A stretch of 52,563 bases of DNA, counting the filler, from Catajapyx aquilonaris (Eukaryota), in the NCBI GenBank assembly GCA_000934665.2. It is 2 parts of 2 records of this genome, joined end to end, with 100 filler letters (N's around TTAATTAATTAA, not from the genome) between each part and the next. Parts side by side here need not be neighbours in the genome. Positions count along the whole stretch, not along the records: positions 26,343 to 52,563 come from JYFJ02005235.1; 1 more part is not named here. One strand, written 5' to 3'. A program made the position numbers and the translations under genes. The stretch's first letter is position 1; each line of letters opens with the position of its first letter. Shown here one piece after another: positions 5,795-52,563 of the stretch. The notes below the pieces were generated by a model. The model was not told the DNA's origin and did no database searches. It saw only the letters and a list, made by a program, of their open reading frames with translations.

Positions 5795-5851
<57 letters not shown>

Positions 5852-6081
5852 CTTATTACTGTATTATTATTATCTTATTATACTGTATTATTATTATCTT
5901 ATTATACTGTATTATTATTATCTTATTATACTGTATTATTATTATTATCTTATTATACTGTATTATTATTATCTTATTACTGTATTATTATTATTATCCT
6001 ATTACTGTATTATTATTATTATCTTATTACTGTATTATTATTATTATCTTATTACTGTATTATTATTATTATTATCTTATT
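5795..6081. repeat. (TTA)n microsatellite grading into a degenerate ~21-24 bp higher-order repeat (TTATTATCTTATTA[TA]CTGTA)
   Basis: Direct reading. It explains the spurious poly-Ile/Tyr ORF 5692-6126. Confidence 0.95.
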
Positions 6082-6990: not shown

Positions 6991-7051
<61 letters not shown>

Positions 7052-7843: not shown

Positions 7844-8653
7844 TAGGGCTGTGCGATATTTCGATACATCGACTGTCGATACGATATTTTCCTAATATCG
7901 AAGTTGCGATTTCCGACTCTTGGCATGTTCGATGTATCGAATATCGCGATTTTTCGATGTCGGTTCGATGTCGGTTCGATGTCGGTTTTCGATATTTTTC
8001 AATGTCGGTTTGATGTCGGTTTTCGATTTTTTTCGATGTCGGTTCGAAGTCGGTCTTCGATATTTTTCGATGTCGGTTTTTCGATTTTCGATAAGTTATA
8101 TCGACTACTATTCGATATTTTTTAAAGGAAGGGTTCAGTGATTTTGCATGTTGAGCTCCAAAAATCAAACACGACTCCCTGATTTGAAATATCCGATCCG
8201 TTTTGTTGGCAAATGCACCATAAGAGTAAAATTTCAAGTCAAAGTTGATTTTTTTGAAAATCAGCGCCGAAGACGGCTTCCCTCTAGCCACAAGAGTGGA
8301 AGCTTCGATGCAGCGGTCGAAGCTTCCACTCTTGTGGCTAGAGGGAACCCGTGTCCCGTGAAAAGATGAAAAAATGGGCTCCGAGACTAAGCCAATCTCA
8401 TTGGCCACGGTGGTGGCAGGTTACCGGAATTTCCGCGGGAGGCGCTGGCTGTACGCTTACCGTATCGAATACAGTAGCGGATATGGACTTTCACCTAACG
8501 GCATTTGTTTACGCGGCATCAGATTCCAAAACTAATCACACTTTTGGAATCATGGAGTCTTCCTTGATCTCTGAAGCCCAACATGCAAAATCACTGAACC
8601 CTTCCTTTAAGTATCGAAAGTAGATATGTAATTTCGGATATCGCACAGCCTTA
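7844..8653. mobile_element. Non-autonomous hAT element (Ac-type TAGGG terminus) with subterminal TCGATGTCGGT repeats
   Basis: TIRs TAGGGCTGTGCGATAT and ATATCGCACAGCCTTA, with 8-bp TSD CCCATTAG at 7836-7843 and 8654-8661. Confidence 0.9.
8126..8606. mobile_element. TTAA-targeting MITE (Kolobok-like) nested in the hAT element
   Basis: 28-bp TIR AGGAAGGGTTCAGTGATTTTGCATGTTG and its reverse complement, with TTAA at 8122-8125 and 8607-8610. A purine-purine terminus with TTAA TSD fits Kolobok. Internal 31-bp-arm hairpin at 8278-8347. Confidence 0.8.
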
Positions 8654-24310: not shown

Positions 24311-25495
24311 TTATATATTTGCAAATATGTTCCTCTCGCGAGCTTCATACAACAGCGGTATAAGTCTTCCGACAAACTTCGGATTAGTGTAGATCTTCTT
24401 GAACTCTTCTTTGCGTTTCAAAGACTCGACGTTGTCCTCCGTCAACGTTGACAAGTCCGGTATATTGGCAGCGTCCATAGTAATCATCGGCAGCACAAGG
24501 CATCCAAATATAAAACCAAAGAGGTAATGTTCATTATATTCTTTCAGCAGGCACTGCAGAGTAAATTTAGACGAATCCACATCAGCGTCGTTCAGGTACG
24601 ACACAAACGCATCATGGTACGCTTCGAACAGGTCATCCAAGTGCTCTCTCCGCACCTCAGCAGTGGTGCTGGTGCAGAACAGATACGCTAGGTCAAGGGT
24701 ACGTGACCCCGCACGTGATATCTGATAATCCACCATCTTAACCTCCTGTGCTTTTCCTTCCTGATCGCACTTGAACAACATGTTGTTCACCCAGCAGTCA
24801 CCGTGGCAAACGACAGCGAACCCGTCATTGACCTTTTCGACCTGTTCGCGACATGCCTGCACAACGCCATAAGGTTTCTTGAGCAGTTTCTTCATCCCCT
24901 CAGCCACGTCGCCAAAATAACCCATCGCCTTCACCACCTCCATAGTGGCCGCAAAATGCTGGTTCATATACATCACCTCCTTGTTCTTATCCGGATCGGT
25001 CATCCTCTCCTTCAAGAACGGAAACTTATCCAACAGCATCGACTTATTCCCTTTTGCAAACAAATAAGACATGGCGTGGAATCGGGCCAATTCGACCACC
25101 ACCAGTTTGCAATGGTCGTAATCCAAACCCTGTATCCGGTCCGCCATTTTGAATCCAGATCGCTTCAGATTCTCCATCAATATGAAATCATTCTTTCCAT
25201 CTGACATTCCATAATAGAACTTGGGATAAGCGGAAAAGGCGCCCATTTTGACTCCACGGTCCGCCTGAAACTTGGCTAAAGAGGGCAGCACATCTTGATA
25301 AATATTTAGCTCCTTGACAAAGGCTTGCAAATGATCCAGCATTGCCTGACGAAACGGATTGTTGGGGATGCACTTGGCCATGATGGAGTAAGAGGTGGAT
25401 TTGCCGGATTTACGGGCTTCTATCTCTACAGCATACAGGAAGGCCAGGTAGTTGTCGCCGACGTTGGAGCCTGGTGTTACTTCAACCTTGGTTAT
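24311..25495 (-). CDS. Ecdysteroid kinase-like (EcKL / CHK kinase domain) protein. Large terminal exon of 394 codons plus stop; first exon not located
   Basis: Acceptor CGCCAG at 25496 leads into ITKVEVTPGSNVGDNYL. Family motifs FILMENLKRSGFKM, LARFHAMS, VCHGDCWVNNMLF, MVDYQIS and DLAYLF are present. Confidence 0.92.
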   Translation of the reverse strand: MTKVEVTPGSNVGDNYLAFLYAVEIEARKSGKSTSYSIMAKCIPNNPFRQAMLDHLQAFVKELNIYQDVLPSLAKFQADRGVKMGAFSAYPKFYYGMSDGKNDFILMENLKRSGFKMADRIQGLDYDHCKLVVVELARFHAMSYLFAKGNKSMLLDKFPFLKERMTDPDKNKEVMYMNQHFAATMEVVKAMGYFGDVAEGMKKLLKKPYGVVQACREQVEKVNDGFAVVCHGDCWVNNMLFKCDQEGKAQEVKMVDYQISRAGSRTLDLAYLFCTSTTAEVRREHLDDLFEAYHDAFVSYLNDADVDSSKFTLQCLLKEYNEHYLFGFIFGCLVLPMITMDAANIPDLSTLTEDNVESLKRKEEFKKIYTNPKFVGRLIPLLYEARERNIFANI

Positions 25496-26242
25496 CTGGC
25501 GACAGAAAATGTTGCATTATAAAAGAAGCTGGTGCATATTTTAAATTTGCGAAATTATACCCTGGGTAGTTCAACTTGAGTCGCTTTAATGTAAAGAAAG
25601 GTATGCAACAATCAAATGGCATGTAACATGTAGTTGAAGCCCGCACCCAATTATTGCTCAGAACATGTGGCTGAGATGCGCCTAAATTGCTAATTGTGCC
25701 TCTAATCTAAGCAGTGACCAAAGGATGACTTTCCTGCACCCCAACCTATCTATTATGAAAGTGATGTTTAAAAGAATAACTTCAATATTTATGCCTTAAT
25801 CCCAATGAAGCCGCCAAAAAACACAATTGGGCCAGGAAACCGATGCATATTTTAATCATCGTGGCACCAGGTTATTAGTTAATGCGTTTAATTGCTGATG
25901 CCTAAATCCCATAGGAAAAAGTAAAATATTAACGATCCTACTACACTACATAGTACGGGTCATTAAAAATACAAGTGTTACATCACTCCCAGCACGCGAC
26001 TTCCTCACGAAAAGCAAGGTCATTGCACACTATACATGGTTGCCAAATAAGTAATTACCAGTGACAGCTGGAACCCCATGTTCTTCTAAATATTCTCGCC
26101 TAAGAAAAGTTTCCATGCACACTATTACACTTCACAAAGCGATGCTCCTAATAATAATCATAATCATAATCATAATAGTAATAATATGGACACTTTGTAT
26201 AGTTTTTTTTTTAAATTATGGAATTGTTAGCTGAAGACACTA

Positions 26243-31000: not shown

Positions 31001-34000
31001 GATACATCCGCTTCCACAATTGGTGTCAATCGTGGCCACTCATGTGCCATCACGTGGTATGGACGTGTATGTGTAATGAGGAAGCTTCCTTTTCTTGGTT
31101 GTAATCTCAGAACAAGCAAACGGACACGGGTTCACGGATCGATCACACGTACTTGAAATAGAGTAATAGATATGTTTATCTCAGGAGGTGCTCGATGGGA
31201 GGGATAAAATGGAAGGGGGGGAAAAAAAAGTTCAACTCGTGTCGAACAGGAGTGTATAAACCTTGAGACGGATATTGCAATGTTGTGTGTGTGTGTTTTT
31301 TTAAAGACCGGTTTTGCAGGATTTGCAAATTTTTTTGGAGCACATACAAGGTGGTTTGTCACCATTGTGAACGTCAAAGGTGGAGCAGAAAAAACAGAGA
31401 TAATAATTATCACTGATCATGCTAAGGATTTTTGTTTGCTTTTGAACCGTTTTGAAAGCCTATGTTTGGTAACGATGTTTCTGAAACTAAATCACATCTG
31501 TACAGCACAAAATTATCCAGGTGTTTACTGCATAAGTTTGAACTCGTTAATGATACACCCTGTATGTCCTTCGAGTGAATGGGACTAGTTAAGTAAGTTA
31601 CAGGTTCGTTGCCAATCAGGTTTTCTGGCCCTTTATTTATTAGCCAAAGAAATGTAAACAACTGAGAGCTGTCATTTATATTGCGACGGTCCTGTAATTT
31701 TTTATTCACAAAAATGTCAATTACATGGGAGCGTTCACTTCACATAAAAAAAGGTTGCCAGATTAATTTCCGGGATTGTTTGTGCCATCAATCGTGATGG
31801 TTGGGTTCCAAGTCCTTCCAATCCAAAGTCTCTGCTTGTGCCCGTATCAAAGGTCAACGATTTAGCAGGATCAAAGTGTATACAGGGGGGCTTTCTTGGC
31901 AAGTAATTTTGCTGATTATGTCCGGATTACTTCTTTATATATATAAAAAAAGATAAAATTGGACAGCGGCCTCGTGTGACGAAAAATTCGGATCTGATAT
32001 TTTTTTTGTTATTGAATGTGTAAAACACAAATTTTACGATCGCGTCCATATATATATATGGCTATGGTAATCATATAATCTTTACAACTGATGGTTACTC
32101 TATTATGCAGCACCTTGTCCTGATATAGTCTGCCTGGCATGGTGCACACACGTCAATGAATAGCAAATTAGCTGCATTGACATGCTGATTCCCAAAAAAA
32201 ATATTTCGCAATGTATTAATTTTATTTCCAGATGTTTGCTTCCGAACGAGTTTCCCAATAACGCGACTTACGAGCTGACACCAGAGCAGCTGAACTCCAG
32301 CTACCCTTGGGATTCTCTGGCCCAAAAATGGTCGCAATGCAGCTACCTGGACCAGAACGGTACCGCAAGATCCTGCGAGGAAATGGTGTACGACACCTCC
32401 AAGTACAAGAGCAGCGCAGTCATAGACGTAAGGACAACCTCTGTCAATTATAATTATTATATGTAATACATATAACATTTGTTGTCAGTGGGGAATGACG
32501 TGCGAGAGGTCGGTGATTCACGCGACTGCCCAAGCATTGTTCATGGTCGGTGTCCTCCTGGGGTCAATCGTCTTTGGAGACCTTTCCGATCGGTAATAAT
32601 CAATCGAATTGCGCAGACAAGAAAGACTTAATTGTTTGACCTCTTTCTGTGTGAAAATATGTAAGGTATGGACGTCGACCGGTGTTCTTCGGGTCGCTGG
32701 TACTGCAGGTGGTGAGCGGGATATTGGCAGGGTTGGCTCCGGAGTACATCTCGTTCGTGGCGGTACGTATTCTGGTCGGAGCAAGCACCTCGGGAGTCTT
32801 CCTGGTGGCGTACGTCATTGGTAAGGAAGCTGTACACGGAACACGATGACACTCTACCCAGAATGTGCCGAACACAGGTGTGGAGCTGGTGGGTCCGAAC
32901 CATCGCCTGTTCACCGGTACAGTGTGCCAGATATTCTTCAGCTGCGGGTACATGGTGACGGCCCTGTTTGCGTACCTGATCGACGACTGGAAGATGCTGC
33001 AGATCGCCTTGTCGCTTCCGGGTCTTCTCTTCCTCTGCTACTGGTGGTGAGTCCGAGCTCTTCAGCATGTTTTAATTGCCCCACCACAATTGATGTTTCC
33101 ATCACAATAAGGTTTGTGCCGGAGTCCATACGATGGCTGATGTCCCAGGGAAGAAACGAGGAGGCGGTGTCGCTCATCCGGAAGGCAGCGGCTGAGAACA
33201 AGGTGTCCATGCCGGACGAGGTGTACGACAGCATCCTGAAGGCCGAGGCGGACGTCGAGGTCAAGCCGGCCGCAGTGGTCAAGAAGGCCAGTCTGCTGGA
33301 CCTCCTCAGGACGCCCAACATGAGGAAGAAGTCTATCAACATCTTCTTCAACTGGTTAGCAATTAAGATCCATATATGTATACAGAATGGAGGACAACTG
33401 GACAAGTGTGTCTCCGTTTCAGGTTCGTGAACAGCGGTGTGTACTACGGCCTGTCTCTGAACACGTCCAACCTGGGCGGAAACGACTACCTGAACTTCCT
33501 GATATCAGGTGCTGTGGAGATACCGGCGTACCTCTCTGTACTATTCACTCTGAACATTTGGGGCAGGAAGTACATGCTCTGCGGGAACATGATCGTCGGA
33601 GGCGTCGCTCTGCTCTTGACATTAGCAGTACCTGATGGTATGTTCAAAAAAAAAGGTACAAAAAAATATGTCCCAATTGTCTCATCCGCATTATTATTTT
33701 TTTGTTCGCAGATCTTCCAGTGCTGACCATAACCTTAGCCATGCTGGGCAAGATGGCCATCACAGCTTCGTACGGCATCATCTACATATTTTCGGCCGAG
33801 CATTTTCCGACCGTGGTCAGAAACGTCGGTATTGGAGCCAGTTCGACAAGTGCTCGAGTTGGAGGTATCCTGGCTCCGTACATCATCCTGCTGGTATGTA
33901 TTACAATATGGCACACCAAAAAAAAATTTAGAAGCAAAAAAAAACTGCAAAAATTCGCAAAAACCTGTTTGCATTTTATTTCCACAGGCCGATTTCTGGA

Positions 34001-34383
34001 GACCGTTTCCTCTCCTGATATTCGGCGGATTGGCCTTCGTGGCAGGGATATTCGCACTTTTGCTGCCCGAGACGTTGAACCGCAAACTTCCAGAGACCAT
34101 AGAGGACGGAGAGAGGTTTGGACCGTAAGCATTGTTGTGCTGAACATTCAGGACGACTTGTCTGATTTTCTGGTTTTTCTTGATATTGTCTGATCTTCTG
34201 GATTTTCTTGAATTGTCTGATCTTCTGATTTTTCTTGAATTGTATGATCTTCTGAATTTTCTTGAATTGTATGATTTTTGCAGGAGAGGGATTGAGGAAG
34301 CTGACAGCAGCGAGAAGACTATAATCAACGGGCTACTGGGTGGGCCAAATGAGAAGGAGAAAGAGGCATCCTTGCCCAGCTAA
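28081..34383 (+). CDS. SLC22 organic cation transporter (Orct-like, MFS), about 558 aa. Exons 28081-28098, 29807-29964, 32232-32427, 32489-32592, 32666-32820, 32878-33046, 33112-33354, 33423-33637, 33712-33893, 33988-34124, 34284-34383
   Basis: Phase-consistent GT-AG model totalling 1677 nt. Motifs MKFDTVLSHLGEFGRYQ, LSDRYGRRP, VPESIRWL, AEHFPTVVRN and LLPETLNRKLPETIED. The 18-nt first exon is less certain; M in MKFD is an alternative start. Confidence 0.93.
28278..28384. mobile_element. Very short Tc1/mariner-type MITE in SLC22 intron 1
   Basis: TA|CAGGGTGACCCCAAAAGTCTGGACACA ... TGTGTCCAGACTTTTGGGTCAC, with a degenerate right tip. Confidence 0.65.
34175..34280. repeat. About 4 copies of a 27-bp tandem repeat in the last SLC22 intron
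   Basis: Unit TTTTCTTGAATTGT[C/A]TGATCTTCTG[G/A/T]A, running up to the acceptor at 34283. Confidence 0.85.
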
Positions 34384-35744: not shown

Positions 35745-38700
35745 TTAATTCCGAGCTTTTAATTTTTTGGCAATTGCAGCCACCAATCCAGCTCCTTTAC
35801 CACTTCCATCCTCAGCTAAAAATAGCTGAAACTATTCAAAAAAAATAAAAAGTGGATTGAAAAAATAGGATCACGCCTGAAAAAAATGATTTTTCGCTTA
35901 CCTTCTTTCCCGGAGCCATTCTGCTAATGAACTGAGTCATTAATTGCTTCAGACGTGGATGATACTTAAAAAGGGAGCCATCGACTGCGATCGTGATCTC
36001 CTGGCGATCTATGCGGTTCAAAACGCTGGACAAACCTGTTAAGCATAATTCGCACATTTTTTTTTTTTACAAGAGATGCTTCGATTAATTAAGATTTAAA
36101 TTATCTCACAAATGGAAACGAGAAGAGCGGCTCTGGTTGACACGACGCTGGAAATGTGCTTGACAATGGTCATGTCATCCTCTCCGAAGGTCAGGCTCAT
36201 GTCTTGCAGGATTTGGGTAATGTGCTCTGATGAGTTGTTCAGGGTGTCTCTATGGAAGAAAGATTTTTTTAAATGTGAATCACACTCAATAAAGTTCCTG
36301 AGTAAAGTTAGAAAGTGTAAGAAATTTCATATTGAACTAATTAATAAAGCAAGTTATTACAACAGTAACAAAATAGGAGTAGTGACCATTCATTACATGT
36401 CAAACTTACTCTTCAATTTGTGAGATGTAACTGGAATGGAAGCTTCCGTGAGTTAGAAGCTGCTCGGTGGCGATGCCGCTGAAGATGGCCTTGTCCTGGG
36501 TCAGTTTGACCAGAATGACCCTGACAATTTCGCCCAGGTAAGTTCCGGCCACGTATTTTTCAAACCTGCATAGAACATATAAGTCACAGTCTAAATTCGA
36601 GAACTATAGAGTCATACGTACGTAAATGAATTGACTAGCAATGAGCTGTTGTCCACGTCTCTATCAAAATCCGTCTTGATAAAGTCCAGAACTCCGTTGT
36701 CACCAAAAGCACCCCATTCAATATCTATGATCACCTGTATTAAATCATTAGTTACAAGTGGATAAAAATATTCTAAAAGCAAGAATGACCTCTTTGGCTC
36801 CGCGGTTGTCCTTCCACTGCCTGATCCTGTCTGCTCTCTCGATATAACATGCGTTGCATCCACTTCCGAGGATGAGTCCCACTGCGCATCTGTGGTCCAG
36901 GAAGGCTCCCTGGACTAATGTTCCAGTGGTGTCGTTCAGGACGGCCACCACTTCCACCTGGAGGTCGCCTCGACGCTTCAGGGCGTCGCTCAGCATCTGA
37001 GACGCGTTCTCTCCGACCACGTCTGGGCAGTTGAACGTCTTCGTCCAGGACAGGAGGATGCCCACGTCGATCCCTCTGTGCTCCATAGGGAAAGAGAAGG
37101 TGAATCCTGAGAGAAGATAAAATAAATATTAGCACTAAAAAGTGTTGGCCATTGCAATTCATCATTAATACATGTAACACTTGTTCATGTACTGAGAAAA
37201 CATTTTATTAAACTTATTGTGACCAAAACAATAATTTTTTTTCAGGTGCTATGAAATTATGGGCTAGGTCAACATTCAATGACATGCATTGTAATGTCAC
37301 ATTTTACTCCGAAGAATCTTATCCAGCACTTAGTACATTATTCACTTATCAAGAAGGCTATACTTCCGCACTTATTCGTGTCTCGAATGCTGGCTGAAGC
37401 AATAATTCTTTGTCTCAGACAATTGCAAAAACTAGCCACAGAATGTGGCCTTGCACACATTATCCAATTTCATGTGACATATACTGCTGTATCATAAACA
37501 ACAGTTAATATTCGAGGCAGTTCTTGTTAAAATATATTATTATGATGGAGGAATGATGGTCTGACCTAAAGGCAAGGTTCGATGAAGCATGTTCTTTTCC
37601 TTCAGAAAGTCGTGTATACATTCGGCCAGGAAATCAAACAGAGGCTTTCCAGGTCCTTTACGAAGATGGTCCGCCACATGATAGTACTTTAGCTCCTCTC
37701 GAGCTATAGCACCACTCTCAAGGACCAAAAGACACACTCGGAAGTTGGTTCCTCCAAGGTCTAGCGCCAGGTATTCGCCTTCCTCTGTAAACAATATCAT
37801 TTAAATGTATTTTGATGAGTAAAGCGTGCAATGATGAATGTACCTGATCCGTCTGGAAGTTCAGGTATGTATGTATTTTCCATCTGGAGCGACGAAGGTT
37901 CTCCAGCGAGACCTCTCTCCATCTCTGATTCAAAGACATCTCGGATTCTCCTTTGAGTATCAGCATTCAGTTTCAGTCCTGCCAGCAGCTGTTCAACCTG
38001 CAGAGATGGTTCAAAAAATAATAATATAGTTCAAGTGAGACAGAACATGTAATTTAGTTATCGCGACACTACCAATAAAGCTAGATGTCAACCGACAAAC
38101 AAACGTGAGGCTGTAATTTTACCGAGTTATAATTAGAAAGCAGATCAGTTTACATACAGATTGAATCAGATCTCGTCAAGTTTCGCGCGCCCAATTCGTT
38201 ACAAAAAAAAAAACGTCTTTCTGACCACTAACGACTTCCTTTTCATCTATTGAAACGTATCTAGATTAAAAGGAGTGTAGCAGAAAAAAAAAGTTTTCTC
38301 TCTTCAGTCAAGATGTATAAACATTGTAGCGCAACACGACCTCCAAATGCAATCGATCGAATCAGAATAGTCTATTGATTCTGCTGCGCGTAGTTTTAGA
38401 ACCTGAGATTCACCCCGTTACAATTTACTGTGCTTTTACATTTGTTGGTAATTTATATCTAATTTCTATATCAAATTTTACAAGTTTGATTAAGACGATT
38501 GTTGCGCCAGGTTCAAATCCATGCTGGGAAAACAATCCGTTGCTGTCACATCCTATACAGTAATGAGGAAGTGTTGACATTTTCTGTGCAGTATTACATA
38601 ACACGTCTATGACTCTTAAAGAGGAAAACATATGTAAAAAAAAATTCGCACGGACTTCCATATAATTTGTGAGGCGTGACCTCGAATGCGGCAATGTGCC

Positions 38701-38950
38701 AACACGATGCTTAAAATTCAAGCACGATACGTGGAGTGTATGACGTCAACCTGTAACATGTGCACTTTTATCTGACCCAAGTGTAATGTATTCTACACAC
38801 CCGGTGGGGGAAAAAAAAGTCATGCAACGACATTAATTTACATACCTGTTGCACCTTCTTGTTGTCTGCAAGCTTCAGCTCCGGAAAATCTAATCCGGAA
38901 CACATTTCTGCGTCTGGTTTGTGTGATGTTACGGACTCGACTGCTGCCAT
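35745..38950 (-). CDS. Hexokinase, canonical 50-kDa type (HK-A), about 474 aa. Exons 38950-38846, 37997-37844, 37784-37566, 37106-36790, 36734-36622, 36565-36410, 36249-36110, 36035-35902, 35831-35745
   Basis: Phase-consistent, 1425 nt. Motifs LALDLGGTNFRV, LGFTFSFP, WTK, VLNDTTGTL, GSGCNACY, EWGAFGD, FEK, AVDGSLF and EDGSGKGA are all intact. Confidence 0.95.
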
Positions 38951-39031
38951 CGGATTACGCACTCTTTTTCCACATGACTATATAGAAGTGAAAGCTTCCT
39001 GCAATTGGCGCTAGAGAGGCGCTCCCTCTCG

Positions 39032-39038
39032 TTTTATA
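39032..39038 (-). promoter_or_regulatory. Candidate TATA box of HK-A
   Basis: Minus-strand TATAAAA about 80 bp upstream of the ATG at 38950. Confidence 0.45.
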
Positions 39039-39421
39039 AAAGGGGTTTTATTATGTAACTGACCAGTGGTCCTGTTTTTGTGACCTATGGGACAGTAATG
39101 AAGGGTTGAGTTGGTTGCGGGATGTTTTTATTGGAGTCGACGCATGCGGATCATGAATCTGAGACGTCTTTGCAATCTGGATGTCTTTATAGAATGGATC
39201 ATTTCCTGTGAAGCTTTGATTGGTTACGAGGACATTTCTGCACTTGTAAGGGCTTCGACTGGAGGACACTTTTTTTTCTATACGGGGTTGGTGTTGCGTA
39301 AGGTGCCAAAAGATAGAGAGGAAACTGCCCATCAGAATGGACAGTCCTGAACAATCATCAAAACTTTGAAAAATATCATGTAACCCATTTATTATTCAGC
39401 CAAAAAAATTAGCAAAAACAT

Positions 39422-41440
39422 TCAAGCTTTGGCAGCTGCAGCCACAAGAGCAGCTCCTTTTCCGCTTCCTTCTTCCGCCAGTATCAATTCAAACTGCGGA
39501 AAAAAAACATAAGGTGCAAATTTCTGCACACTTTCGCACACCATGAGAGCACTTACCTGTCTTCCAGGACACATGTCGCTTATGAACTTGTACATGTATG
39601 ACCTGAGTCGTGGATGGTACTTGAAGAGTGAGCCGTCGATCGCGATTGTCGTTTCAGGTCGAGCCATTCTCTCCAGCAAGTGTGAGAGATGAATCGATGC
39701 AACAATGGCCGTCCTTACAGATATGAGTTGACATATGTGCTTCACGATTGCGATGTCATCTTCAGTCGGACTCAATTCCAGATCTGTCAGAAACTTCCTG
39801 GTGTTTTCAGTCTTGTTGTTCAAGTTGTCCCTTGAAAATAATTCGGATTATGACACAAGCATCAACATAAAAATTGACTAATTGTAAATATTTATCTAAT
39901 AAATAATAGCCATGTACTTACTCTTCAGCTTTGGATATATCTGGTGCCCCAAAACTCTCAGCAGCTGTCAATTTGTCAGATACTTTCCCATTAAAAAGTA
40001 GCCCTTCTTTGGCCAGTTTTATCGTCGCAAGGCGTAATAATTCGCCATAATATGCTCCACCAATAATCTTCTCAAGTCTGCAGAAAGAATATTGGTAAAC
40101 CACTAAAAATGAGTGCACATAAATGCTAATCAGAGTAACATTTAGTTAAAAGTACTTGCTACAGTCTCTGACTGTTCTGAATATTTTATAGTAAGCTGCT
40201 TCACTATGTACACATAGTACAAGCAATCACGTACGTGAACATATTAGGCTCGATTGATTTCTCGTCAATTTCCAGATCAAATTCAGTCTTGAAACTATCC
40301 AGCTTCCCATCCTCTCCTAAAGAGCTGCTCTCTGTGTTCACCACCACCTGAAGACCAAAAATCGTATTAAGAAACAATTCGCCCAAAGTATTAGTTAAAT
40401 GATAGCCGACAATGACCTTTCCTGTTCGACCTTTCCCTGCATGACCTCCCTTCTTAATCTTGTCTGCATCTTCCAGATAGCAAACGTTGTATCCACTCCC
40501 CAAGATAACTCCCATGGCGCTTCTCTTGTCCTGAAACGCTCCTTGCATCAGGGTTCCTGTGGTGTCGTTCAGGATGGCCACCACCTCCACATTGACCATC
40601 CCTTGTCTTTTGATGGCCTCCTTCAACAAAAGGGCAGCGTCTTTCCCAACAACATCTGGACAGTCGAATGAATTAGCCCAGGAGATAAGAATACCAGAGT
40701 CGATCGCCATTTGGTGGAATGGAAATGAGTATGTGAAACCTACGGGGAAATAAACGTGTACAAAAAAAAAAGGTAACGTGCTGAGACAATATTAAACTCG
40801 GTGGACATACCAAGTGGCAGCTTTTTCTCCAGAAGGTTCCGTTTCTTCAAGAAGTCGTGGATTGATTCGGCCAGAAAATCAAACATTAGAACTCCAGGCC
40901 CCTTTCGCAGCTTGGAAGGAACCTCGTAGTATTCCAGCTGAACATCCTGTTCTTTTCCAGCACCTCTAAGCGTCAGGAGGCATACTCGGAAGTTGGTTGC
41001 ACCCAAGTCTAATGCCAGGTATTCTCCAACCTCTATACAAAAGGAGTCGATTTTTGTGACAGCATATACACTTTAATAACGAACACAACTGACCAGATCC
41101 GTTTGGAAGCTCCGAAATGTGTGTGTTTTCCATCAGCATTCTTGTGGGCTCCCCTCGCAATCCTTTTTCCAGCTCATCATTAAAGATGGTCCTGAATTGT
41201 GTCCTCCTCTTCTGATCCCATTTGAATCCCTTCAATTCATTCTCCACCTACATAAAAAAACATAGTCAGACACTAACCTTGAACTGATAGTCATGCGAAC
41301 TCGGCCTGATCGAAAGTGAAACCGCACAGGATTTTGATCTATACCGTACTGCTACATGTATATAATATTAATATATGACAAACCTTATCCGCTTTGGACT
41401 TGTCCTTCAAAACAAGGGACGGGCAGTATTCTGGTTCCAT
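39422..41440 (-). CDS. Divergent hexokinase paralogue (HK-B), about 456 aa. Exons 41440-41384, 41247-41094, 41032-40811, 40739-40417, 40347-40235, 40077-39922, 39830-39557, 39493-39422
   Basis: Phase-consistent, 1371 nt. Motifs LALDLGATNFRV, GFTYSFP, WAN (for WTK), ILNDTTGTL, NTESS, LEK, IDGSLF and EEGSGKGA. Confidence 0.93.
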
Positions 41441-42172
41441 TGCTTCAAAATATATGTCCGTGCAGCTCAATGAATCAAGCTCGACTGACGTGTTAGCCCT
41501 GAATTGTGAACAGAGGGCGTCACTTTAGTTGGTTGACTGACCTACAAACCTTGTCCTCTATTTGCTTTTATTGAAGCCGCGACCACTATAAGTCACGAAT
41601 ACGCTCCAAGTGCGATTATGGTATATCAATAGGCCTACTTACCTGGCAGCATAATTCAAAACCGTTATGTAACTACAAGTTGGCAGACCTGCTATGCTTA
41701 GTAAAGTTGCGTGTGGTTGCGTGCAACCCACTCTTTTTGTTTCAAAAGTCTGCAGCATTATCAGAGGTGATTAATTACTGCGTTTCTGAGCTTGGTTGCT
41801 AGCACAGTCTATTGTTTGCAAATTAGGGCACGGTATATTTACACCGTACCAAGCACAGCAAATTGGTGCCTTTTCATTCAGATCAAGCCCTATAGTTATG
41901 ATACATTATTACAATAATGTTATTGGTACTTCTCCAACGATTGTACCGGAAACCGTCAATTTAGGGAACATAACATGGAGATTAAACGAATTCTTGAAGT
42001 ACTGTACATCATTTATTCGTGTATAACTGAAATCCTGAATAATATCCATCCGAACTTGTAGGTTGTAATTTTCTTACACACGACACTACGACGCTGTTTA
42101 ATTAAGACAATCAAACAATCAAGCTGGTGATATATTGCCCAAAACTGAAGAAAGTGCCACAATATATAGTTC

Positions 42173-44259
42173 TCACGCCTTCTTTTTCTTCTTAATAATG
42201 GCAGCAGTCAACGCAGCACCTTTAATCGTGCCATCCTCAGCAAGTATGATCTCAAACTGGAAACGACATTATCATTTCGACTTGAACACTGCAATAGAAC
42301 TCACATCGCTTTACCTTCTTTCTGGGGACCAGTTCGTGCAGGAAAGTGTGCAGATACGAGTTCATTCGCGGATTCTTCCTGTACAAGGCGCCATCGACTG
42401 CAATTGTCGCTTCATTGCATCCCATCCTCTTCATCAAGCATGCGACGCAGATCGAGGCGATCATCGCTGTCCTTAGGCACATGAGTGCACTCACGTGCTT
42501 CACGATCGCAACTTCTTCGGCTATCTTCGCCGCGAGACCAAAGCCTCCCGTCAGATTGGCCTTCGTCCTGCCAGCGTCGTCCAGGTTGTCTCTTTTTTAT
42601 TTTATTTGGGAGAACACTCTGAGAGTTTATACATTCGTGAGACAGCTCCAAAGGACATACAAACATCAAGGGCAGCTCAAAATTCAGCCCTAAAAGCTTG
42701 TCATTCGACAACCTGGACATACTCACTCTTCAGCTTCCAGGACGAACCGCATGTCTAAACTGCCTGGAGTCTCCAGATTGAGCTTGCATCCAGAAAATCC
42801 TAACTCGTTGAACAGCTTCAACAAGACGAGACGCATCAACTCGCCCAAGTGAGCGCCTCCAGCAATTTTATCCATCCTGCCCACCCAAAAAAAATAAATG
42901 GATGTTACTATATACGACCCTGAACTCTGACCCGAAACAGTAGCTTACGTGAAAGAGCTGGGCTCATCCGACTTCTCGTCCAGCTCGGTGTCGAACTCAG
43001 TCTTCAGATAATCCATGTTGCCTTCGTCCCCTACAAGGCCACACTCTGTGTTCACAATCACCTGCAGGCACACGAATAGTATGTGTTATAGCTAGGTCAT
43101 TAGGTCAGATTGCCCACTTTAATTATTGTGACCTTATCGCCTTCACATGTGTACTCTTTGTACAGACTGGATTTGTCCAAGTAGCAGATGTTGTAACCTG
43201 TCCCCAAAACGAGTCCTATGGCGCATTTGGGGTTTTGAAAGGCTCCTTGTACCAGTGTGCTTGTGGCGTTGCTTAGGATGGCCACCAACTCCACTTTGGA
43301 CAGATTCTTTCGGGACAGGGCCTCGCTCAGGACGAGGGACACGTCCTTTCCGATAGAGGCGGAGTCCTTGTACCGGCTGCCCCAGGTAATCAAGATGCCC
43401 GAATTTATCTCCTTTTGGTAGTACGGAAACCCTAAAGTGAAACCTATACGAGAAAGAGAGCCAACCCGTTGTCAAAATTTGGCAACACTGTCCCCTGGAC
43501 TTAGTGCGTTATGCCACAACAATATGGCGCGCATCATCTCTCTCTGCACACTACTGCCACTCTCAGTTACTAATGCACGTTGGTGATGAGTCAACGTATA
43601 AAGGGACAGAGTGACACCTAAGATAATTTTTGTACATGATGATTAATATTGCCTACCCAGAGGTAGCTGCTTCTCCAAAAGGTTTCTCTTGCTCAAAAAT
43701 TCGTGGAGGGAATTAGCTATAAAGTCGAACAAGCTGCTGTCCGTGGCCTGTCTCACATCTGGAGGCACCAAGTAGCTCTCAATATCCACATCGGGCTCGG
43801 AATCTCGTCCTTTGAGAACCATGAGGCAAACGCGGATTCGACTCGAATCCAGCTCTAGTCCCAGGTACTCTCCGACCTCTGAAAAACATGACTCTTATAT
43901 AGTTACATATCCTTGTGTCGGAATAAAAAGTACGGGCCCTCACCAGACCGATCTGGAAATTGCGACACGTGTGTGTTGATCATCAGCATCGTTGTCTCTT
44001 CCTCCGGATTAAAACCTTTAGCCAACTCGAGCTTGAAGTCCAAAAAGAACCTCATCATCGTATCCTTACTTAAGCTGAATCCTTTAACAATATCCTCAAT
44101 CTGCATTGGAAAACATGTCCCGTTCATGTAATTGTTATACGGGTAGGTACAATTACTCACTTTTTCCTTCCGCTGTACGTCGTCCAAGACAAGTTCCGGA
44201 TGACGCAGAGCTTGATTAGTCGGCGGTTTGCTCGACGAACACCCGCATTCGTCCGCCAT
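42173..44259 (-). CDS. Hexokinase-like protein, predicted catalytically inactive (HK-C), about 470 aa. Exons 44259-44161, 44100-43944, 43878-43657, 43443-43133, 43061-42949, 42876-42727, 42591-42315, 42256-42173
   Basis: Phase-consistent, 1413 nt, no stops or frameshifts, same intron positions as HK-B. Motifs altered to LGLELDSSRIRV, GFTLGFP, WGS, ILSNATSTL, MDK, VDGAL and EDGTIKGA. Ends KKKKKA. Confidence 0.88.
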
Positions 44260-44286
44260 ACTGTACCGTTTTTCCGTGTCACAATC

Positions 44287-44328
44287 ATTACCGATGGCAA
44301 CAATCGGAATTTGCGTTTCTGTCGCAAC
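44287..44328. promoter_or_regulatory. Two X-box-like (RFX) motifs in the HK-C/IFT88 divergent promoter
   Basis: ATTACC-GAT-GGCAAC (44287-44301) and GTTTCT-GT-CGCAAC (44315-44328) are imperfect matches to GTNRCC(N0-3)RGYAAC. Confidence 0.55.
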
Positions 44329-44631
44329 CGTTCATTTAGTTAACAGACATTCGAACATTTTTTTTATTCCTTTTTTTTAAAAAAACCAAGGTTCAAAAAC
44401 GCCCGCGCTTTCAAATTCATCAGAATATCGAACACTCCCGGCAACTTCGCCCATCAAGAGGAAATAGCGAATCGTGAATATGCGGCTGCCGAAAATTCAC
44501 TCCGGCTACCAGGCCAAGGTTCGTGTTCGAATTATCGATCTTCTGAAGTTCAATCAATATTATTTTCTTGTTTCGTTCTGGAACGGCCATTTGTGGTGTG
44601 TTTGCAGTCGACGGAGGTCAGCATGGTGGCC

Positions 44632-47600
44632 ATGATGGAGCAGATGCGGCTTGGAGCCACGGGCCCTCCTCCTGGTGGTGTAGCGGCACTGGCCAAGAAT
44701 AAGGAGGAAGAGGACGACCTGTACTCCGGCTACAACGAGTATCCAGAGGCACTCAACACCAAGGACCTGCATCAGGACGAGGGGTTCCAACAGGCCATCA
44801 AAACCAGCCATGGAAGGAGGCCCACGGTATTATAAAGGACAAACAAACAAACAAACAGACGGACAGACAGACAGACAGATGGACAGACAAACAAACAAAG
44901 TGTGGTAGCCATGGTAACAAACAAACAGACGGATAGACAGACAGACAAACAGACGGACAAACAAAAAGTATAGTAGCCATGGTAACAAACAGACAGACAG
45001 ACAGACAAACAGACGGACAGACAAAAAGTATAGTATCCATGGTAACAAACAGACGGACGGACAGACAAACAGACGGACAGACAAAATGTATAGTAGCCAT
45101 GGTAACAAACAAACAAATGGACAGACAGGCAAACAGACGGACAGACAAAAAGTATAGTAGCCATGGTAACAAACAAACGGACGGACAAACAGAGGGACAG
45201 ACAAAAAGTAGTAGCCATGGTAACGAGCAAAATCCAGCCATGGAAGGAAGCTTACGGTAAGAACAAACAAACAAACACGCAAGCCATGGAAGGAGGCCAT
45301 GGGGTCACAGTAAGTACAAACAAACAGACAGACAGACAAACAAACAAACAAACAAAAGTGTAGTAGCCATGGTAACAAACAAACAAATGAACAAGCCATG
45401 AAAGGAGACCTACGGAAAGAACAAACAAACTAACACACAAATCCAGCCATAGAAGGAAGCCGACAGTACGAACAAACAAGCCATGGAAAGAGACCGATGG
45501 TAAGAACACAGAACAAACAAACAACCAGACAAAACTAGCCTTGGAAGGAGACCCACAGCGAGAACAAACAAACAAACAAACAAACAAACAAACGAATGTA
45601 TGTATGAATAAACAGGCTAATAGTTGTCTGATTTTGTCTAACGTTGCAGGCCACACCGAGGGTACCGAGTACTGCGATGCGGCTTGGGACTGCGTCTGGC
45701 GTAAGTACTGTTCGGTACGGTTGCATCGCAGTTATTGTGATATGAACTTTTTGTAGTACCGAGCTGGTGCGACTGGGACGGGTTTGCGGACTGCAATGGC
45801 GTCACGTGCGGGCATGCAGACCGGGGATATGGATGTTGCCAGGCCGATTACAGCGGTGCGTGGAGCTGGGTACACGTCCAGTCAGAACAGGACGCCCGGA
45901 CAGAAGCTGTTCGATCCGTTGAACCTGGCAGCGAAGGGGACGGGGCCTGCGCCGCCCTTGGAGCTGAAGCTGGATGAGAGTCCGGAGGGGAAGATACGGC
46001 AGCTGGAGCGGAAGGTGAACGACTTGATTGAGGAGTCAATTTTGTTTGCCAAGAAGGGCGATGCGCGGACGGCGTTGGAGAGGGCCAAGGAGGCGTCCGC
46101 TAAGGAGAAGTCGCTGATCCGCATGCGGGACCAGATTGGGCTGAAGGACGGACATAATATGGATATGACGTTCAACGTTGCGTTTAATCTAGCCTCTGCG
46201 TACACGGTCAACGAGATGTACGTAGAAGCGCTTAGCACCTACCAGGCAATCACAAAGAACAGGATGTTCAGCAACGCCGGACGTCTGAAGCTGAACATGG
46301 GGAATATTTATTTCAAGCAGGGGCAGTACGCAAAAGCCATCAAATTGTATCGGATGGCATTAGATCAGGTACGCTCTTCATCCGTCAAGTGTACTTATTT
46401 TGTAATAACATGTCGTTCCTCCAGGTTCCGAACACGCACAAGGAGCTTCGTCTGAAGATAATGCACAACATCGGCTCCTTGTTTGTGAAGATGGGCCAGT
46501 ATGGCGATGCAGCCACGTCCTTCGAGTACATAATGCAGGAAAAGCCGGACCACAAGACCGGCCTGAATTTGATCCTCTGTTACTACTCGCTTGGTGATCG
46601 TGAGAAGATGAAAAAGGGATTTCAGGTCTGTTGCGTAGTTAATCGAGAGAGAGAGAGAGCTTCATGTATTGTAATTGCGTTTCTACAACGTAGGCCATGT
46701 TGGAGGTGCCTCAGTGCTTGGGACGCGACGACGAAGACAAGTACCATCTGGTGGGTGGCGAGGACCCTCTCCAACGTGCAATTATAGAGACAGTGAAAAA
46801 CGACAGCTACAGCCAGTTCCAGCGCAGGCGGAAGGAATCGACAGTGTACTCCGTGCTCACTTCGGCCAAGTTGATATCCCCTGTGCTGGGCTCGCCTGCG
46901 GTGGAAGGCAACGAGAACGGAGAGGGGCACGACTGGTGCGTGGAGGCCGTGAAGGCCAGCGGGGGGCCATTCAGCAACCTGGCTGGTGACCTGGAGATCA
47001 ATCGTGCTGTCAGCTTGATGAAAAAGCGAGACTTCGTTTCGGCGGCCGAGACGCTAAGGGCATTCGAGAAGAGGAAGGAGGCGAAAGTGGCCGGAGCCGC
47101 GGCTACCAACCTGACCTTCCTTCACTTTTTGCAGGTGATTATGGGACATGCCGGTACACAATCGAACCTGAACTGACCGCCAAATTAATATCGCAGGGTG
47201 ACTACGAGCAAGCGGAGAAGTACGGCGAACAAGCCCGACAAGCCGACCCGTACAGTGCCGGCGCATTTGTGAACCTGGGTAACTGCGCTTTCATCCACGG
47301 CGATGTCGAAAAGGCGCGTGAAATGTACGTGGTGGCCCTCGAGAACGACTCCTCCTGCGTGGAGGCTCTCTTCAACCTGGGGCTCTCGGACAAGCGGATG
47401 GCCATGTACGAGGAGGCCCTGCAGAGCTTCGAGAAGCTGCGTCACATTGTGCACAACCACCCCCAGGTCTTGTACCAGGTGGCGCACCTCCACGAGCTTA
47501 TGGGCGAGAGAGAGCAGGCCGTCGAGTGGTACCTGCAGGTCCTGGGAGTGGTGGCGTCCGACCCAAGCATACTTCACAGGCTCGGACAGCTGTACGATAA

Positions 47601-48539
47601 GGATGGGGACAAGCAGCAGTCGTACCACTATCACTTTGATGTGAGTACTTTGCATCATAAATTACAGTCACTTACAGTTAGGCCGCGTTTACATATGAGC
47701 AATTTGATCAGTGATACCGGAAAGTAACAATGTAAACGTGGCCTGCAGCAGTGCTGATCCGTAAAATTGCGTAAAGTGGTCAATCATTCATTTAAAAATC
47801 ATGTGCTAATTACTGCTTGTTTCACCCTAGTCGTACCGTTACTACCCGTCAAACCTCGAGGTGATTGAGTGGCTGGGATCCTACTTCGTGGAGATGCAAG
47901 TGGCCGAGAAGGCCATTGCTTACTTTGAGCGTGCAGCACTCATGCAACCGGATGATCCTCGTTGGCCTTTGACTGTCGCCAGCTGTCACAGACGAAGTGG
48001 AAGCTACCACCGTGCACTTGAAACGTACAGGTGAGCACATATGACGTACACTTGGGCATACAAATGATTCATATAAATGCAATTTGTGTCACAGGCGAGT
48101 GCATCGGAGGTTCCCCGAGAATTTGGAGTGCCTTCGATTCCTAATCCGCATCTGCAACGATATGGGCCTGAAAGAAGCGGCGGACTACGCAAACGAGTTG
48201 AAGCAAGCGGAAAAGGCAAAGGCGGCCAGAGAAAGGGCTGCCAGCTCCAGGCCTGGGTCACGTCGAGTAGGGTCAAGGTCAGGGTCGGCAGCCAGCGTGG
48301 CCAACAGCGCAGGATTGGTGAGAAGCACGCCAGGTTCGGCCCTGAGCTTGGGACGCGAGACCAGCCTGAGTCTAGACGACGACGAAGATTTCCTGGCGGC
48401 TAAGACGAAGGAAGTGGACGCCAGTTACAGCGACCCAATCGGGCCACTGGTGGAGAGGCCCAAGACCAGCATGGGTCGGGGGGTCAAGCCGGAAGAGGAG
48501 TTTGCTGAGGGAGAGGGACAGGATTTGCTGCCCGAGTAA
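44632..48539 (+). CDS. IFT88: Intraflagellar transport protein 88 (polaris/OSM-5/NompB), about 862 aa. Exons 44632-44826, 45650-45700, 45757-46368, 46425-46625, 46694-47134, 47197-47640, 47831-48030, 48095-48539
   Basis: Phase-consistent, 2589 nt. Motifs EDDLYSGYNEY, FQQAIKTSHGRRP, RPITAVRGAGY, TPRs with AIKLYRMALDQVP, FPENLECLRFLIRIC, DASYSDPIGPLVERPKTS and C-terminal LLPE. An in-frame ATG at 44623 is an alternative start. Confidence 0.97.
44836..45595 (+). repeat. Compound minisatellite in the first IFT88 coding intron: (ACAA/ACAG)n spacers with ~60-bp X-box units and degenerate copies of the exon end
   Basis: GTAGCCATGGTAAC at 44905, 44973, 45093, 45157, 45211 and 45363, and GTATCCATGGTAAC at 45033. 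About six AGCCATGGAAGGAG...ACGGTA-like copies lie between 45234 and 45560. Confidence 0.95.
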
Positions 48540-49089
48540 CTTACGAAGAGTACAATTATTTCCGTCCATTATTATAAGCACCTGCATTTGCCTTATTGCG
48601 CACCCTGTGATAATGTATGTTTTAAAATAAAGGATCTGTTGAATCGTTGCGATTTGAACTATCCTTCACATGCATTTACCTTGGACATACTTAATGAGCA
48701 TAAACAGGTTGTTTTGAACCTTGGTTGCTCGCAGCAGATGGCAACGCAATAAAATGCCTTCCCTTTTGTTTTTCATCCTCGTCGCAACAATTGTGCAAAT
48801 ATGATTCACGGAGGACAAATGGCAGTCATAAGGATACTTGCTGAGGACAAGGGCTCAAATTGTATCGCAATCAATGCATACTGATCTGGTTGAGTGGTAG
48901 CGAACAATGATGTCCTCAGGAATGTGCAGTGTTCCCATTATCTGCTCTGCACGTTATGTTGTTATTGTATAGTGAATAGTGAGGGACAAAAGGATTTTGA
49001 GCTCATTGCAGTTGAGGGAACGGCTAGGGTAAGTTCACCCCATCGATACGGCCGAAACTGATATGTAACGACAGTTATTTTCTCACCAG

Positions 49090-50063
49090 ATGAAGTGCCT
49101 GTACGCGATTGTGTGTTTGGCCGCTCTTTTCATCGGAGTACTTGCACAGTCATCAGAAGAACCATCCGGACCATCAAGTCAGCTACAAAATGTCATGGCC
49201 AGATTGTTCGACTTAATTGAGGAAGCGGCTAAAACGATCCAGATTGTCCCTAAGGTAATTTCATTCACTTTATAAGCGCACACTCTCTAGTTAAATCTAA
49301 TATTGTTAATTTATTAAGTGGGCAGTACAGTCATAATGTAATGAACAATTGTAATGCAGGACTTTAAAAATCTACAGCCGTACTTCAAAACCATCAACAA
49401 ATCACTTGAAACCATAAGTAAGAAGGTGAGAAGCGCAGAGATTACTCCCGAATAATTTAACCTGAAGAGTAACACTATTTTTGTTTCAGGTCATGAATCG
49501 CCTGATGGAGTCTCGTGATTCAATAGCCGCTCTGGGTAAACGAATTAATGAAGGCTCAGGTGATGATATACTAAGGCTGTACCGCATGATTATAAACGCA
49601 ACACTTGAAGCCCTGAACCGGTAAGCTATCGTACAGCAGAACCTTACAGATACAATAAATCATAATGTTTTCAGAGATTCGGAGGGGGCTGAAGAAACCT
49701 TCAGACGTGCTGGAAAAATACTTCCGCCATTGATCAACAGCATCTCCAGTGATGTAAAGGATGAACTGCCGAAGATAATTGAACCGTTTCAGAACGCTAG
49801 GGACGAGTTTGCACCCATGTTGCAAGATATGCGAGAAGCATTGAAAGCCATCTCTCATAAGGTTAGTCACAACATTTGGAGATGTAACTTGCAAAAATTA
49901 ATTATGATATTATTCACAGCTGGTGATGCAGATCATAACGAGGTCCAACCCGAGTTTAAGAAGTATCGTGAGCTTTATGAAACTACACGCACATGAGATT
50001 CAACAGTTGTCTGTAGATTTGAGCACGATTCTTGGGAGTATATACGGTTCACGCTCGCAATGA
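49090..50063 (+). CDS. Secreted alpha-helical protein of unknown family (paralogue 1), about 230 aa. Exons 49090-49254, 49360-49425, 49490-49620, 49675-49861, 49920-50063
   Basis: Signal-peptide-like MKCLYAIVCLAALFIGVLA and a phase-consistent GT-AG chain of 693 nt. The mature region is Cys-free and amphipathic. An upstream UTR donor lies near 49029. Confidence 0.75.
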
Positions 50064-51824
50064 TAAGCATGTGCTACCATCTCTAAGTTGGGTGTGCAAT
50101 GTTTAATAGCTGGCAAGTACACGGCAGGTGTCACTTCTTGTCACTTTTTATTCAGCAAATGTACTGCGCAATCAGGTGCATTGTCTACATAGGAGAAGCT
50201 AATATTAGACAATAGTGCCATAGACATTATATCGAACAAACCAGTGCTCTTATCTTGACAAAGTATGTACTCTTTTAGTCTTTGTACTTAATACATAAAG
50301 GATGATCAACTGGCTCGTTGTGCATCCTTTTCCCAGTTCGTTTTCAGAAATTTTTATAGACATGCTTCTTGTAATAAAAAAGGGGCGCTAAGGAATTTCA
50401 CAAGTCTTCCACGGCTCAAAAGGTGAATGGCAATGTAAAATAATACGGTCTCTTTGGTTTCATCATTTTACAGCTGTTACACCTACGTCATAACTACAGG
50501 CCTATTGCATACTAAAGTTTGCAGGTGAGAAGTGTTTACACAGTGCATAAGTTTCAAACCCAGCGGGTGGGTGAACAGCATAAGCTCTCTTTAGGTAGGT
50601 TAATAACAGCAATCAAAGTGTATTCGCCAAAAAGAGTTGCTGGTCAACATTACTATTATCAATCGCTGCTGCCGTTTAATCTGATTTGCAGCAGTCGATA
50701 AAACAGATACGACAGGAACTTTCTTGCCATCTCTTTCGCTTCAAAATAATCCTGCCATGTCTTGTGTGTAAGTCTTTTATACAAGTAGTACTGACAGAAG
50801 ATTTTGTACAATAACTCGTACAATGTCTTGTGAAGTAATACGGGTATTATCAATCTATGGTAGGGATTAAACGTGGCAAAAAATATTGAGCATTATTGTG
50901 CTGTACTGTAGAAAGTGTGCAGCTGCAGTGTACAGGACATAATTGAACTACATCAATATGTTTACATTATTCTGGAGTTAATAACATGTCATATGCAAAT
51001 ACTGAATGCAAACGAACCGAAATCATGCAGACATACTGTACATCACACATATGGTAGCAGCATATTTATCATCTCCTTATTGCCTTCAATGATATCAATA
51101 ATAATGTATATTCAATGCATATCACACTGATAACAGGATCAGTTTTGTGCACACAATAAATATACATTTAAAAAAAGTGATGCATAAATCCAATGTGCAC
51201 ATGCATATACAATAATTGCAAAAAAATCCGGATTGTTATCCGCACAAATCCTTCAGAAATCTTCTATAAATCTTGCAAATCCAATGGACTTAATCACTGA
51301 ATATAATTCTCTAAATTCATGATCACCTAACGTACAAGTTAGAGAAGTCTCTGCTATACAGAGAGGTTATCTCTTATTATCGTGATGACAATAAAGAATA
51401 AGTAGACCTAGATCACACATTTTCAAACGGTGTCAGTCACAAAATTATCAGTGCTGATTGTACGGCCTAATTATGACGTCAAAAATTATTGAATGCGGAC
51501 ATTTTTTTTTTTTCATTCTCATATCGACATAAGGTGTCACAAGTCTTTTCAAAAAAAAATGTCCACACCCTATCTTGCTATTGCAGAAAAAAAACACCTT
51601 CCTTTTTTTATTTATCATCCTCACATATCAGAACTTAATCACACTTATTGCAACGCACGTTTTCATATCCACTTGATCCCCCTGCAGTGTCAATCACTTA
51701 TTCTTATTCTGTCATTGAGTAATCCTAGAGCCGACGAAGGAAGATAAACGACTTTTAATCCCAAGGCCAGTCTGAAAATCGTCATCAAATCAAAGGTACA
51801 TCTTGATAGTGACACTTTGGCGAG

Positions 51825-51831
51825 TATAAAG
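51825..51831 (+). promoter_or_regulatory. Candidate TATA box of secreted paralogue 2
   Basis: TATAAAG followed by a short non-coding exon (donor AAG|GTATG near 51888) and an acceptor directly before the ATG at 51957. Confidence 0.55.
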
Positions 51832-51956
51832 GGGGATAAGTCGCCATTCCTCAGCCGCTACGGTAGATACAATCCGCAGTCAGGCAAGGTATGACTCGCT
51901 GTTCTGTCCACGCAATTAGCAAAAAAAAAGTTAACAAATTAATTTTTTTTTAACAG

Positions 51957-52558
51957 ATGAAGTACCTCCTGGTTTTCTTGGCCGTTTTTGGGCTCGCCAA
52001 TGCATCCCTAACCCTGCCTCAAAGTGGTACGTACGTTACATAACTCTATGTACACAACAATTTAACAATTGTTGTCCATTTTTCAGGATTCAGGACAGCT
52101 CAGCTTATACACAGGGGAGGTAAGTTTATGGACATTTTTTTAAAAGACGATTTGGGTGTTAACTTGGTTCTTTTTTTTAACAGTTGCATTGAAGGATGGA
52201 GAACTCGCAGATATCATCAAGATCCTCTCAAACCTTCTGAAGGAGGCTGTTGAAGCTGTTGGAGCTGACATGGCCGAAATTATTAGTTGGGTGAAAACAG
52301 AATGGCAGGCACTACAGCCTTACATTCATGACCTCAACGCAGCCATTCAGGACCTTGCTAAGCAGGTAAATTTTCAAGCTCATTAAATGTTTCATCGAGA
52401 ATATATGGATGATTGCATGTTCTGCAGCTCAACACTGATCTGCGTGGCTTGGGAGAAGCGGTGGCCAAGAAGGTCCTCCAGTTCATCGCCGATCATTCCG
52501 ACACTTTCAATCAACTCCAACAGCTGGTTGAAGATGCAGCTGACAAGTTGCAGAAGGG
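51957..52558 (+). CDS. Secreted alpha-helical protein (paralogue 2), 3'-truncated by the window. Exons 51957-52026, 52087-52119, 52184-52365, 52428-52558
   Basis: Signal-peptide-like MKYLLVFLAVFGLANA and phase-consistent exons. EWQALQPYIHDLNAAIQDLAKQ| aligns with paralogue 1 DFKNLQPYFKTINKSLETISKK|. Confidence 0.78.
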
Positions 52559-52563
52559 GTTAG

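Follow-up and report, generated by a model that had tools for sequence, protein, structure and literature searches.

When a gene of a class known to be governed by RFX factors carries seven X-boxes in tandem inside an intron, is the cluster to be read as a regulatory element or as a by-product of the repeat that contains it? The question is raised by the IFT88 gene of Catajapyx aquilonaris, which lies in a stretch of 52,563 nucleotides of assembly GCA_000934665.2 (in what follows, the window is the whole of that stretch). A first-pass annotation had answered it in favour of a repeat-amplified RFX enhancer (or an RFX sink). The features on which the argument turns are collected in Table 1.

Table 1. 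Features at the IFT88 locus, in window positions
Feature	Position	Strand	Remarks
Candidate upstream X-box	44287..44301	+	15 bp; 336 bp before the IFT88 ATG, 28 bp before the hexokinase ATG
IFT88/nompB coding region	44623..48539	+	8 exons, 865 aa; placed by homology, frame and spliced contigs
IFT88 exons	44623-44826, 45650-45700, 45757-46368, 46425-46625, 46694-47134, 47197-47640, 47831-48030, 48095-48539	+	
J0	44806..44829	+	End of exon 1 (Ser-His-Gly-Arg-Arg-Pro-Thr codons) and donor; likely source of AGCCATGG
IFT88 first coding intron	44827..45649	+	823 bp, mostly repeats
~60-bp minisatellite	44850..45224	+	Six X-box units (44905, 44973, 45033, 45093, 45157, 45211); ACAA/ACAG/ACGG spacers
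J1-J6	45236, 45282, 45394, 45445, 45479, 45537 (45236..45560)	+	Decayed copies of the exon-1 end and donor
Seventh X-box	45363..45376	+	Closes block 45282-45393

The gene and its repeat-filled first intron

The gene is identified by its largest early exon, whose best named matches are the IFT88/nompB proteins of insects and crustaceans (best 120 of 255 hits; 2,368 candidates) and thereby mark the host as an arthropod. The eight-exon model has no internal stops and its identity to homologues is at most 58%. Introns 3-7, five of the seven, are supported by GT..AG joins in spliced contigs of run X5; introns 1 and 2 are placed by homology and frame alone, the X5 pieces listed beginning at 45842. 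The other six introns measure 56-190 bp, against 823 bp for the first. A candidate exon may lie further upstream (44480-44622): from an ATG at 44480 it would run for 13 codons to a donor at 44519, with the acceptor at 44607. It would add 18 in-frame residues or else be a 5' UTR exon, and the array intron would then be the second of the transcript. The gene does belong, as the first-pass annotation had proposed, to a known class of RFX targets: regulation of the orthologue is reported for fly and worm, and expression of nompB is down 12.7-fold in dRfx mutants (PMC2375033).

The array is found exactly as it was first described, in position and in spacing (68, 60, 60, 64, 54 and 152 bp). The 14-mer GTAGCCATGGTAAC occurs six times on the + strand, at every X-box start in Table 1 other than 45033, which is occupied by the single GTATCCATGGTAAC (copy 3). 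These seven copies are the only matches to the worm-type pattern GTHNYYATRRNAAC on either strand of the whole window. The human RFX1 consensus GTNRCC-N0-3-RGYAAC (as cited in the available part of PMC3414849) has no match in the window outside the array and fits six of the seven copies, copy 3 excepted, so that the consensus fit claimed for the six-copy motif holds. TRF reports a 60-bp unit in 5.7 copies at 44850-45205, and this, with the intact 865-aa model, puts the minisatellite inside the first coding intron, where it had been placed. Mean pairwise identity of all seven X units is 87%. The block that ends in the seventh X-box (45282-45393) mirrors the exon end, spacer and first X-box (44806-44935). 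The seven copies are a single origin amplified; they are neither seven events nor seven pieces of evidence. They sit at +282 to +753 from the IFT88 ATG, not in the upstream proximal promoter.

Upstream of IFT88 there are three tandem hexokinase genes on the minus strand (36700-44259; Pfam hits at 36751, 40207 and 43103), the nearest of which is head-to-head with IFT88 and starts 364 bp upstream of it. Plus-strand exons of a Sugar_tr-family transporter (32800-34200) are followed by a 27-bp tandem repeat (34158-34275), and in a minus-strand EcKL (ecdysteroid kinase-like) frame of 401 aa (24314-25516) an X-box-like sequence occurs by chance, scoring 14.3 bits on the fly matrix referred to below. 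Just downstream of IFT88, on the plus strand, are two short multi-exon genes, apparently for secreted helical proteins (49050-52563); Pfam has no match for the one exon searched. Simple repeats are common in the window, among them TTA microsatellites and a 34-bp tandem repeat at 5795-6075, 6994-7051 and 7953-8115.

Quality and conservation of the X-box match

The motif was scored with two matrices built from the tables of papers; published binding matrices could shift these scores. The worm matrix is a hand tally of 30 validated 14-bp sites among the 31 in Table 1 of PMC3245922, the one 15-bp site being omitted, as was the A-initial osm-5 site of Table 2 in that paper, a duplicate, in sequence and position, of the tub-1 entry in Table 1. 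The fly matrix comes from the half-sites of 15 target genes in two species (PMC2375033, Table 2). On the worm matrix nothing else in the window comes near the seven array copies, which reach 17.9-18.3 of 23 bits where the next other place has 11.4, and the chance of such a site is 5e-5 per 60-bp unit; copy 3 is a single base away from the X-boxes of bbs-2 and xbx-1, both validated, in that same worm table (PMC3245922, Table 1). The fly matrix gives the major form 13.6 of 22 bits (the seven training pairs that were checked span 11.4-19.8), a score of which ~1.3 instances are expected per window, or 1.5e-3 per 60-bp unit, and the copy-3 change costs 3.9 bits. The motif fails the fly consensus forms RYYNYY-N1-3-RRNRAC and GYTRYY-N1-3-RRHRAC on both strands; it passes only RTNRCC, in its major form, and the looser RYNNYY. 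One X-box of this quality exceeds chance.

All 31 of the validated worm X-boxes tabulated in PMC3245922 are upstream of the ATG. A 'permissive' window of -2300 to +1400 is given for human X-boxes (PMC5838959), and the array positions probably fall inside it, measured as they are from the ATG rather than the TSS. There is also an ordinary candidate in the usual place: the upstream site of Table 1 scores 13.7 bits on the fly matrix, second in the window, and ranks first as the best half-site pair in the window on the worm matrix. With an equally good site at that position, IFT88 has a plausible RFX promoter without the array.

The near-invariance of the 14-mer among varying spacers, another observation of the first pass, is borne out: no other stretch of the unit varies so little, with one of 14 columns varying across the seven copies, the minimum of 46 sliding windows (p 0.004 assuming uniform rates), and both columns that adjoin it vary. 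When indels are counted, this 1/14 compares with 5/9 variable flank columns (p 0.018); on substitutions only, it compares with 3/9 (p 0.26), which is no excess conservation. Because flank and spacers are slippage-prone, tests that assume uniform rates overstate constraint. Only four of the 42 possible substitutions leave the worm score undiminished, and the change observed in copy 3 is among them.

Copies of the exon end and the origin of the X unit

The first-pass annotation overlooked a second set of repeats in the intron, the six decayed copies of the exon-1 end (J1-J6). Compared with the last 21 bases of exon 1 plus the first three intronic bases, each has 19-21 matches in 24; the highest value in the background, taken over 103,080 positions, is 15/24. 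The copies align with the real junction on through the microsatellite that follows it. Four of the six retain a donor-like GT (at 45257, 45310, 45466 and 45500). Judged on its sequence, the intron is a junction-spanning minisatellite of the human F7/CBS type: as in F7 IVS7, the first monomer straddles the exon-intron boundary and recurs further along the intron. The RFX reading of the first pass thus stands in part: the human and worm models both rate the motif as a good X-box, but the exon-end copies open a non-regulatory route to a look-alike in this very gene.

X-box and J units have in common an identical 8-base core, AGCCATGG, which belongs to the Ser-His-Gly codons of the exon; among the matches listed, 60 of 120 homologues have Ser-His-Gly at the corresponding place. 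In J units without an X-box the core has 3/48 mismatches, compared with 22/96 in the rest. A donor-like site is present in each of the seven X units, J2 bears the marks of slippage about the common core, and one deletion in J0, J1, J2 or J5 (four of the seven units) yields 11 of the 14 X-box bases. The excess of the J copies over background, the common core and the 11 bases from one deletion all support a junction origin, and we consider it quite probable, on these alignments, that the X-box unit derives from the exon-1 junction repeat. X units, at 87%, are less diverged than J units, which are 76% alike, and their amplification is accordingly the younger.

A one-step origin of the X-box by single deletion was tried and rejected: among 1,580 deletions per unit in seven J units, none reaches 8 bits, so that at least three changes are required in all. 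No source for the left flank of the X unit was found within 43500-49000 outside the array. With the core taken as fixed, the chance of a full site of such score is about 3e-4 to 2e-3; the chance that an independent X-box should have this exact core is 0.009 on the worm matrix and 3e-4 to 2e-3 on the fly matrix. Since the by-product and the independent site are both improbable coincidences, there is room for selection.

Readings of the array and comparison with known systems

The best explanation of the whole, to which we attach a probability of about 0.4, is that a junction-derived X-box has been amplified and serves as an auxiliary RFX enhancer. The intron has grown as the exon-1 end and donor were duplicated again and again, together with ACAA microsatellite. 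One duplicate would then have had its middle deleted, so that the Ser-His-Gly core came to abut the donor T and a microsatellite AAC, and would have gained a GT on its left to become a near-palindromic X-box, which slippage or unequal crossing-over could have amplified to seven copies. In ciliated cells, RFX would bind this array 280-750 bp into the gene, and the array, under weak purifying selection, would add to the drive from the upstream X-box. The top seven worm scores, the low column variation, the improbability of the site as a by-product and the fall of nompB expression in dRfx mutants are counted for the enhancer; the substitution-only test, the conservation of the core in J units, the middling fly score, the intronic position and the upstream site are counted against it. 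A real RFX role for the array we would put at about even odds. A fuller version, in which an RFX enhancer has arisen de novo from the gene's own codons, donor and microsatellite, with seven sites, possibly Fox-flanked and length-polymorphic, its copy number tuning IFT88 dose and its precursors lying alongside, is rather unlikely.

It may be, with a likelihood somewhat short of even, that the same origin has produced only a neutral minisatellite, its X-box likeness due to the Ser-His-Gly codons and the gene run from the upstream site, and RFX may nevertheless bind the array in vitro. The recurrence of Ser-His-Gly among the homologues listed points to the protein as the source of the seed, and the A at position 3, which is furthest from the fly consensus (1/60 half-sites), is the exon's own base. 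Conservation of the core in J units as well and the existence of an upstream site of equal score fit with neutrality, and with 1,094 windows of this genome covered, coincidences at the 1e-3 level are to be expected. What neutrality accommodates less readily is the need for at least three changes, none of the single deletions of the seven J units sufficing, and the coincidence of the least variable window with the 14-mer, just where the adjoining columns vary.

It is improbable that an older, functional, single intronic X-box was later swept into unstable repeats and matches the exon core by coincidence. CCATGG is present in nine of the 31 worm sites tabulated in PMC3245922, the exact-core chance on the worm matrix is no smaller than that of the neutral route, the region searched offers no source for that flank of the X unit which lies to the left, and one conserved fly site does lie just downstream of the ATG (PMC2375033, Table 2). 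Against this are the smaller exact-core chance on the fly matrix and the ties between the two types of unit: J2, spacer and X7 mirror J0, spacer and X1, and the slippage in J2 is around the core.

The units might instead act in RNA as pseudo-donors, whose use would add intron with an early stop (read-through of intron 1 meets one at the third codon) and lower the yield of productive IFT88 mRNA. The authentic donor of intron 1 agrees with the consensus at three of seven non-GT positions and is the weakest of the gene's seven; the seven X units score 4/7 and three J donors 5/7. In all, 11 repeat-borne donor-like sites follow the authentic donor, and ten of them score higher in this simple count, which uses the standard donor consensus. 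Pseudo-donors are indeed used in human 6-16 and CBS, but in F7, LMNB2 and PDGF the most upstream donor alone is used, even in competition with stronger pseudo-sites (PMC1557585, in the part available). The F7 precedent ranks an RNA-level role low, and donor function would leave the conservation of the left half of the 14-mer unexplained; we regard this reading as very improbable.

Contig depth served as a proxy for a genome-wide copy search of the X unit. The contigs are from three DNA runs (X1, X2 and X4) of one sample, possibly the source of the window itself, so they are not independent; matching was at 90% identity over pieces of ~40 bases, passed over those portions of the array that were treated as repeats, and would not register short cores scattered elsewhere. 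At that resolution the X unit does not look like a high-copy dispersed repeat: the X-box positions have the same depth as their local contigs (28-48 in X1), with no excess, and it is the spacer microsatellite that draws outside contigs (depth 146 at 45074). Contigs built from raw reads contain the array, none of those listed spanning all of it. They match 45088-45174 and 45149-45554 with 0 differences, and the upstream contig of X1 and X4 extends into copies 1-2 (as reconstructed from the listed differences); the units of the array differ by point changes. The first unit of one X2 contig departs from the window, with which X1 and X4, from the same sample, agree; this X2 contig continues with a 78-base piece that has two differences from 45033-45110, the window's own continuation differing at 28. 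This variant unit is a weak hint of a second allele, or else a contig chimera. It is hardly credible that the array should be due to faulty assembly or to a mobile repeat dispersed in the genome, for although no listed contig spans it, copy 3 is exact in no listed piece and one X2 contig differs in its first unit, the two stretches matched without difference, the point changes that distinguish the copies and the purely local depth of the X-boxes (to be compared with 349 for an element in intron 6) all speak against it.

That element, of 65 bp (47680-47744), has 15-bp terminal inverted repeats (14/15 match). Its left 40 bases have ~10-fold depth from many other contigs (349 vs ~30), which marks it as a dispersed MITE-like repeat; it may be related to PIF/Harbinger. 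Also in the contigs, a joint between 45396 and 47679 in one X4 contig, with 21 letters on its short side, was discounted as a product of the repeats, and in each of X1, X2 and X4 a contig aligns to 46272 and goes on into hexokinase-like sequence, possibly a chimera or a shared short repeat. A metagenome scan with an 18-base core gave 40 loci, all single copies without the microsatellite context and in alignments of at most 26 bases, which were rejected as chance matches.

If the sites work, they are a case of a binding site born from coding sequence, in which the source, the intermediate steps and the final product can all be seen at one locus, and they offer a natural 0-7 copy series for relating RFX site number to the output of a ciliary gene. 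If they do not, the lesson is clearly a cautionary one: a persuasive cluster of motifs in the 'right' gene can stem from that gene's own codons. A literature search, outside of which lay most subscription papers and supplements, turned up no repeat-amplified X-box array and 0 papers with the exact motif together with RFX; the portions of PMC1794439 and PMC10556659 that are accessible have nothing on an intronic IFT88 X-box.

In the literature drawn on here, RFX targets are described with one to three promoter X-boxes, the multi-site cases having two or three, and in one case the second site represses (PMC3245922). The array resembles the X-boxes of worm osm-5, xbx-1 and bbs-2 (PMC3245922, as tabulated) and of fly nompB (PMC2375033) in its 14-bp near-palindrome, AT spacer, perfect RGYAAC half and presence in an IFT88 orthologue, and its 14-mers are only 1-2 bases from validated worm sites; unlike the worm and fly sites, which number one to three, its seven copies are intronic and tandem-made, and they are known from sequence alone. 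There is some likeness to the paired Rfx/Fd3F module, as far as PMC3414849 is available, in that RYMAAYA lies within 40 bp of all seven X-boxes. Here, however, it comes from the ACAA microsatellite (49.8 per kb vs 4.4 in the window), and the motifs are at least 280 bp into the gene, whereas the Fox motif of that module is within ~50 bp of the start site; fly nompB, moreover, is given there as not being an Fd3F target. Binding of FOXP3 to TTTG repeats (PMC10719092, in part) is a lead for the spacers. In hTERT MNS16A, too, a binding site next to a gene is multiplied by a tandem unit; alleles of different length and effects in reporters have been shown there, and more copies lower activity (PMC5438627, in the part available), so the direction of any effect of the array on IFT88 could be either. 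The closest likeness in structure is to the human minisatellites of F7 IVS7 (the 37-bp VNTR), CBS intron 13, 6-16 intron 2, LMNB2 and PDGF intron 4, which share the boundary-spanning first monomer and the donor reiterated as pseudo-sites. Compared with those, as they appear in the accessible part of PMC1557585, the IFT88 copies are decayed (~76% identical) and interleaved with microsatellite, and a younger, rearranged subfamily of them forms a candidate transcription-factor site.
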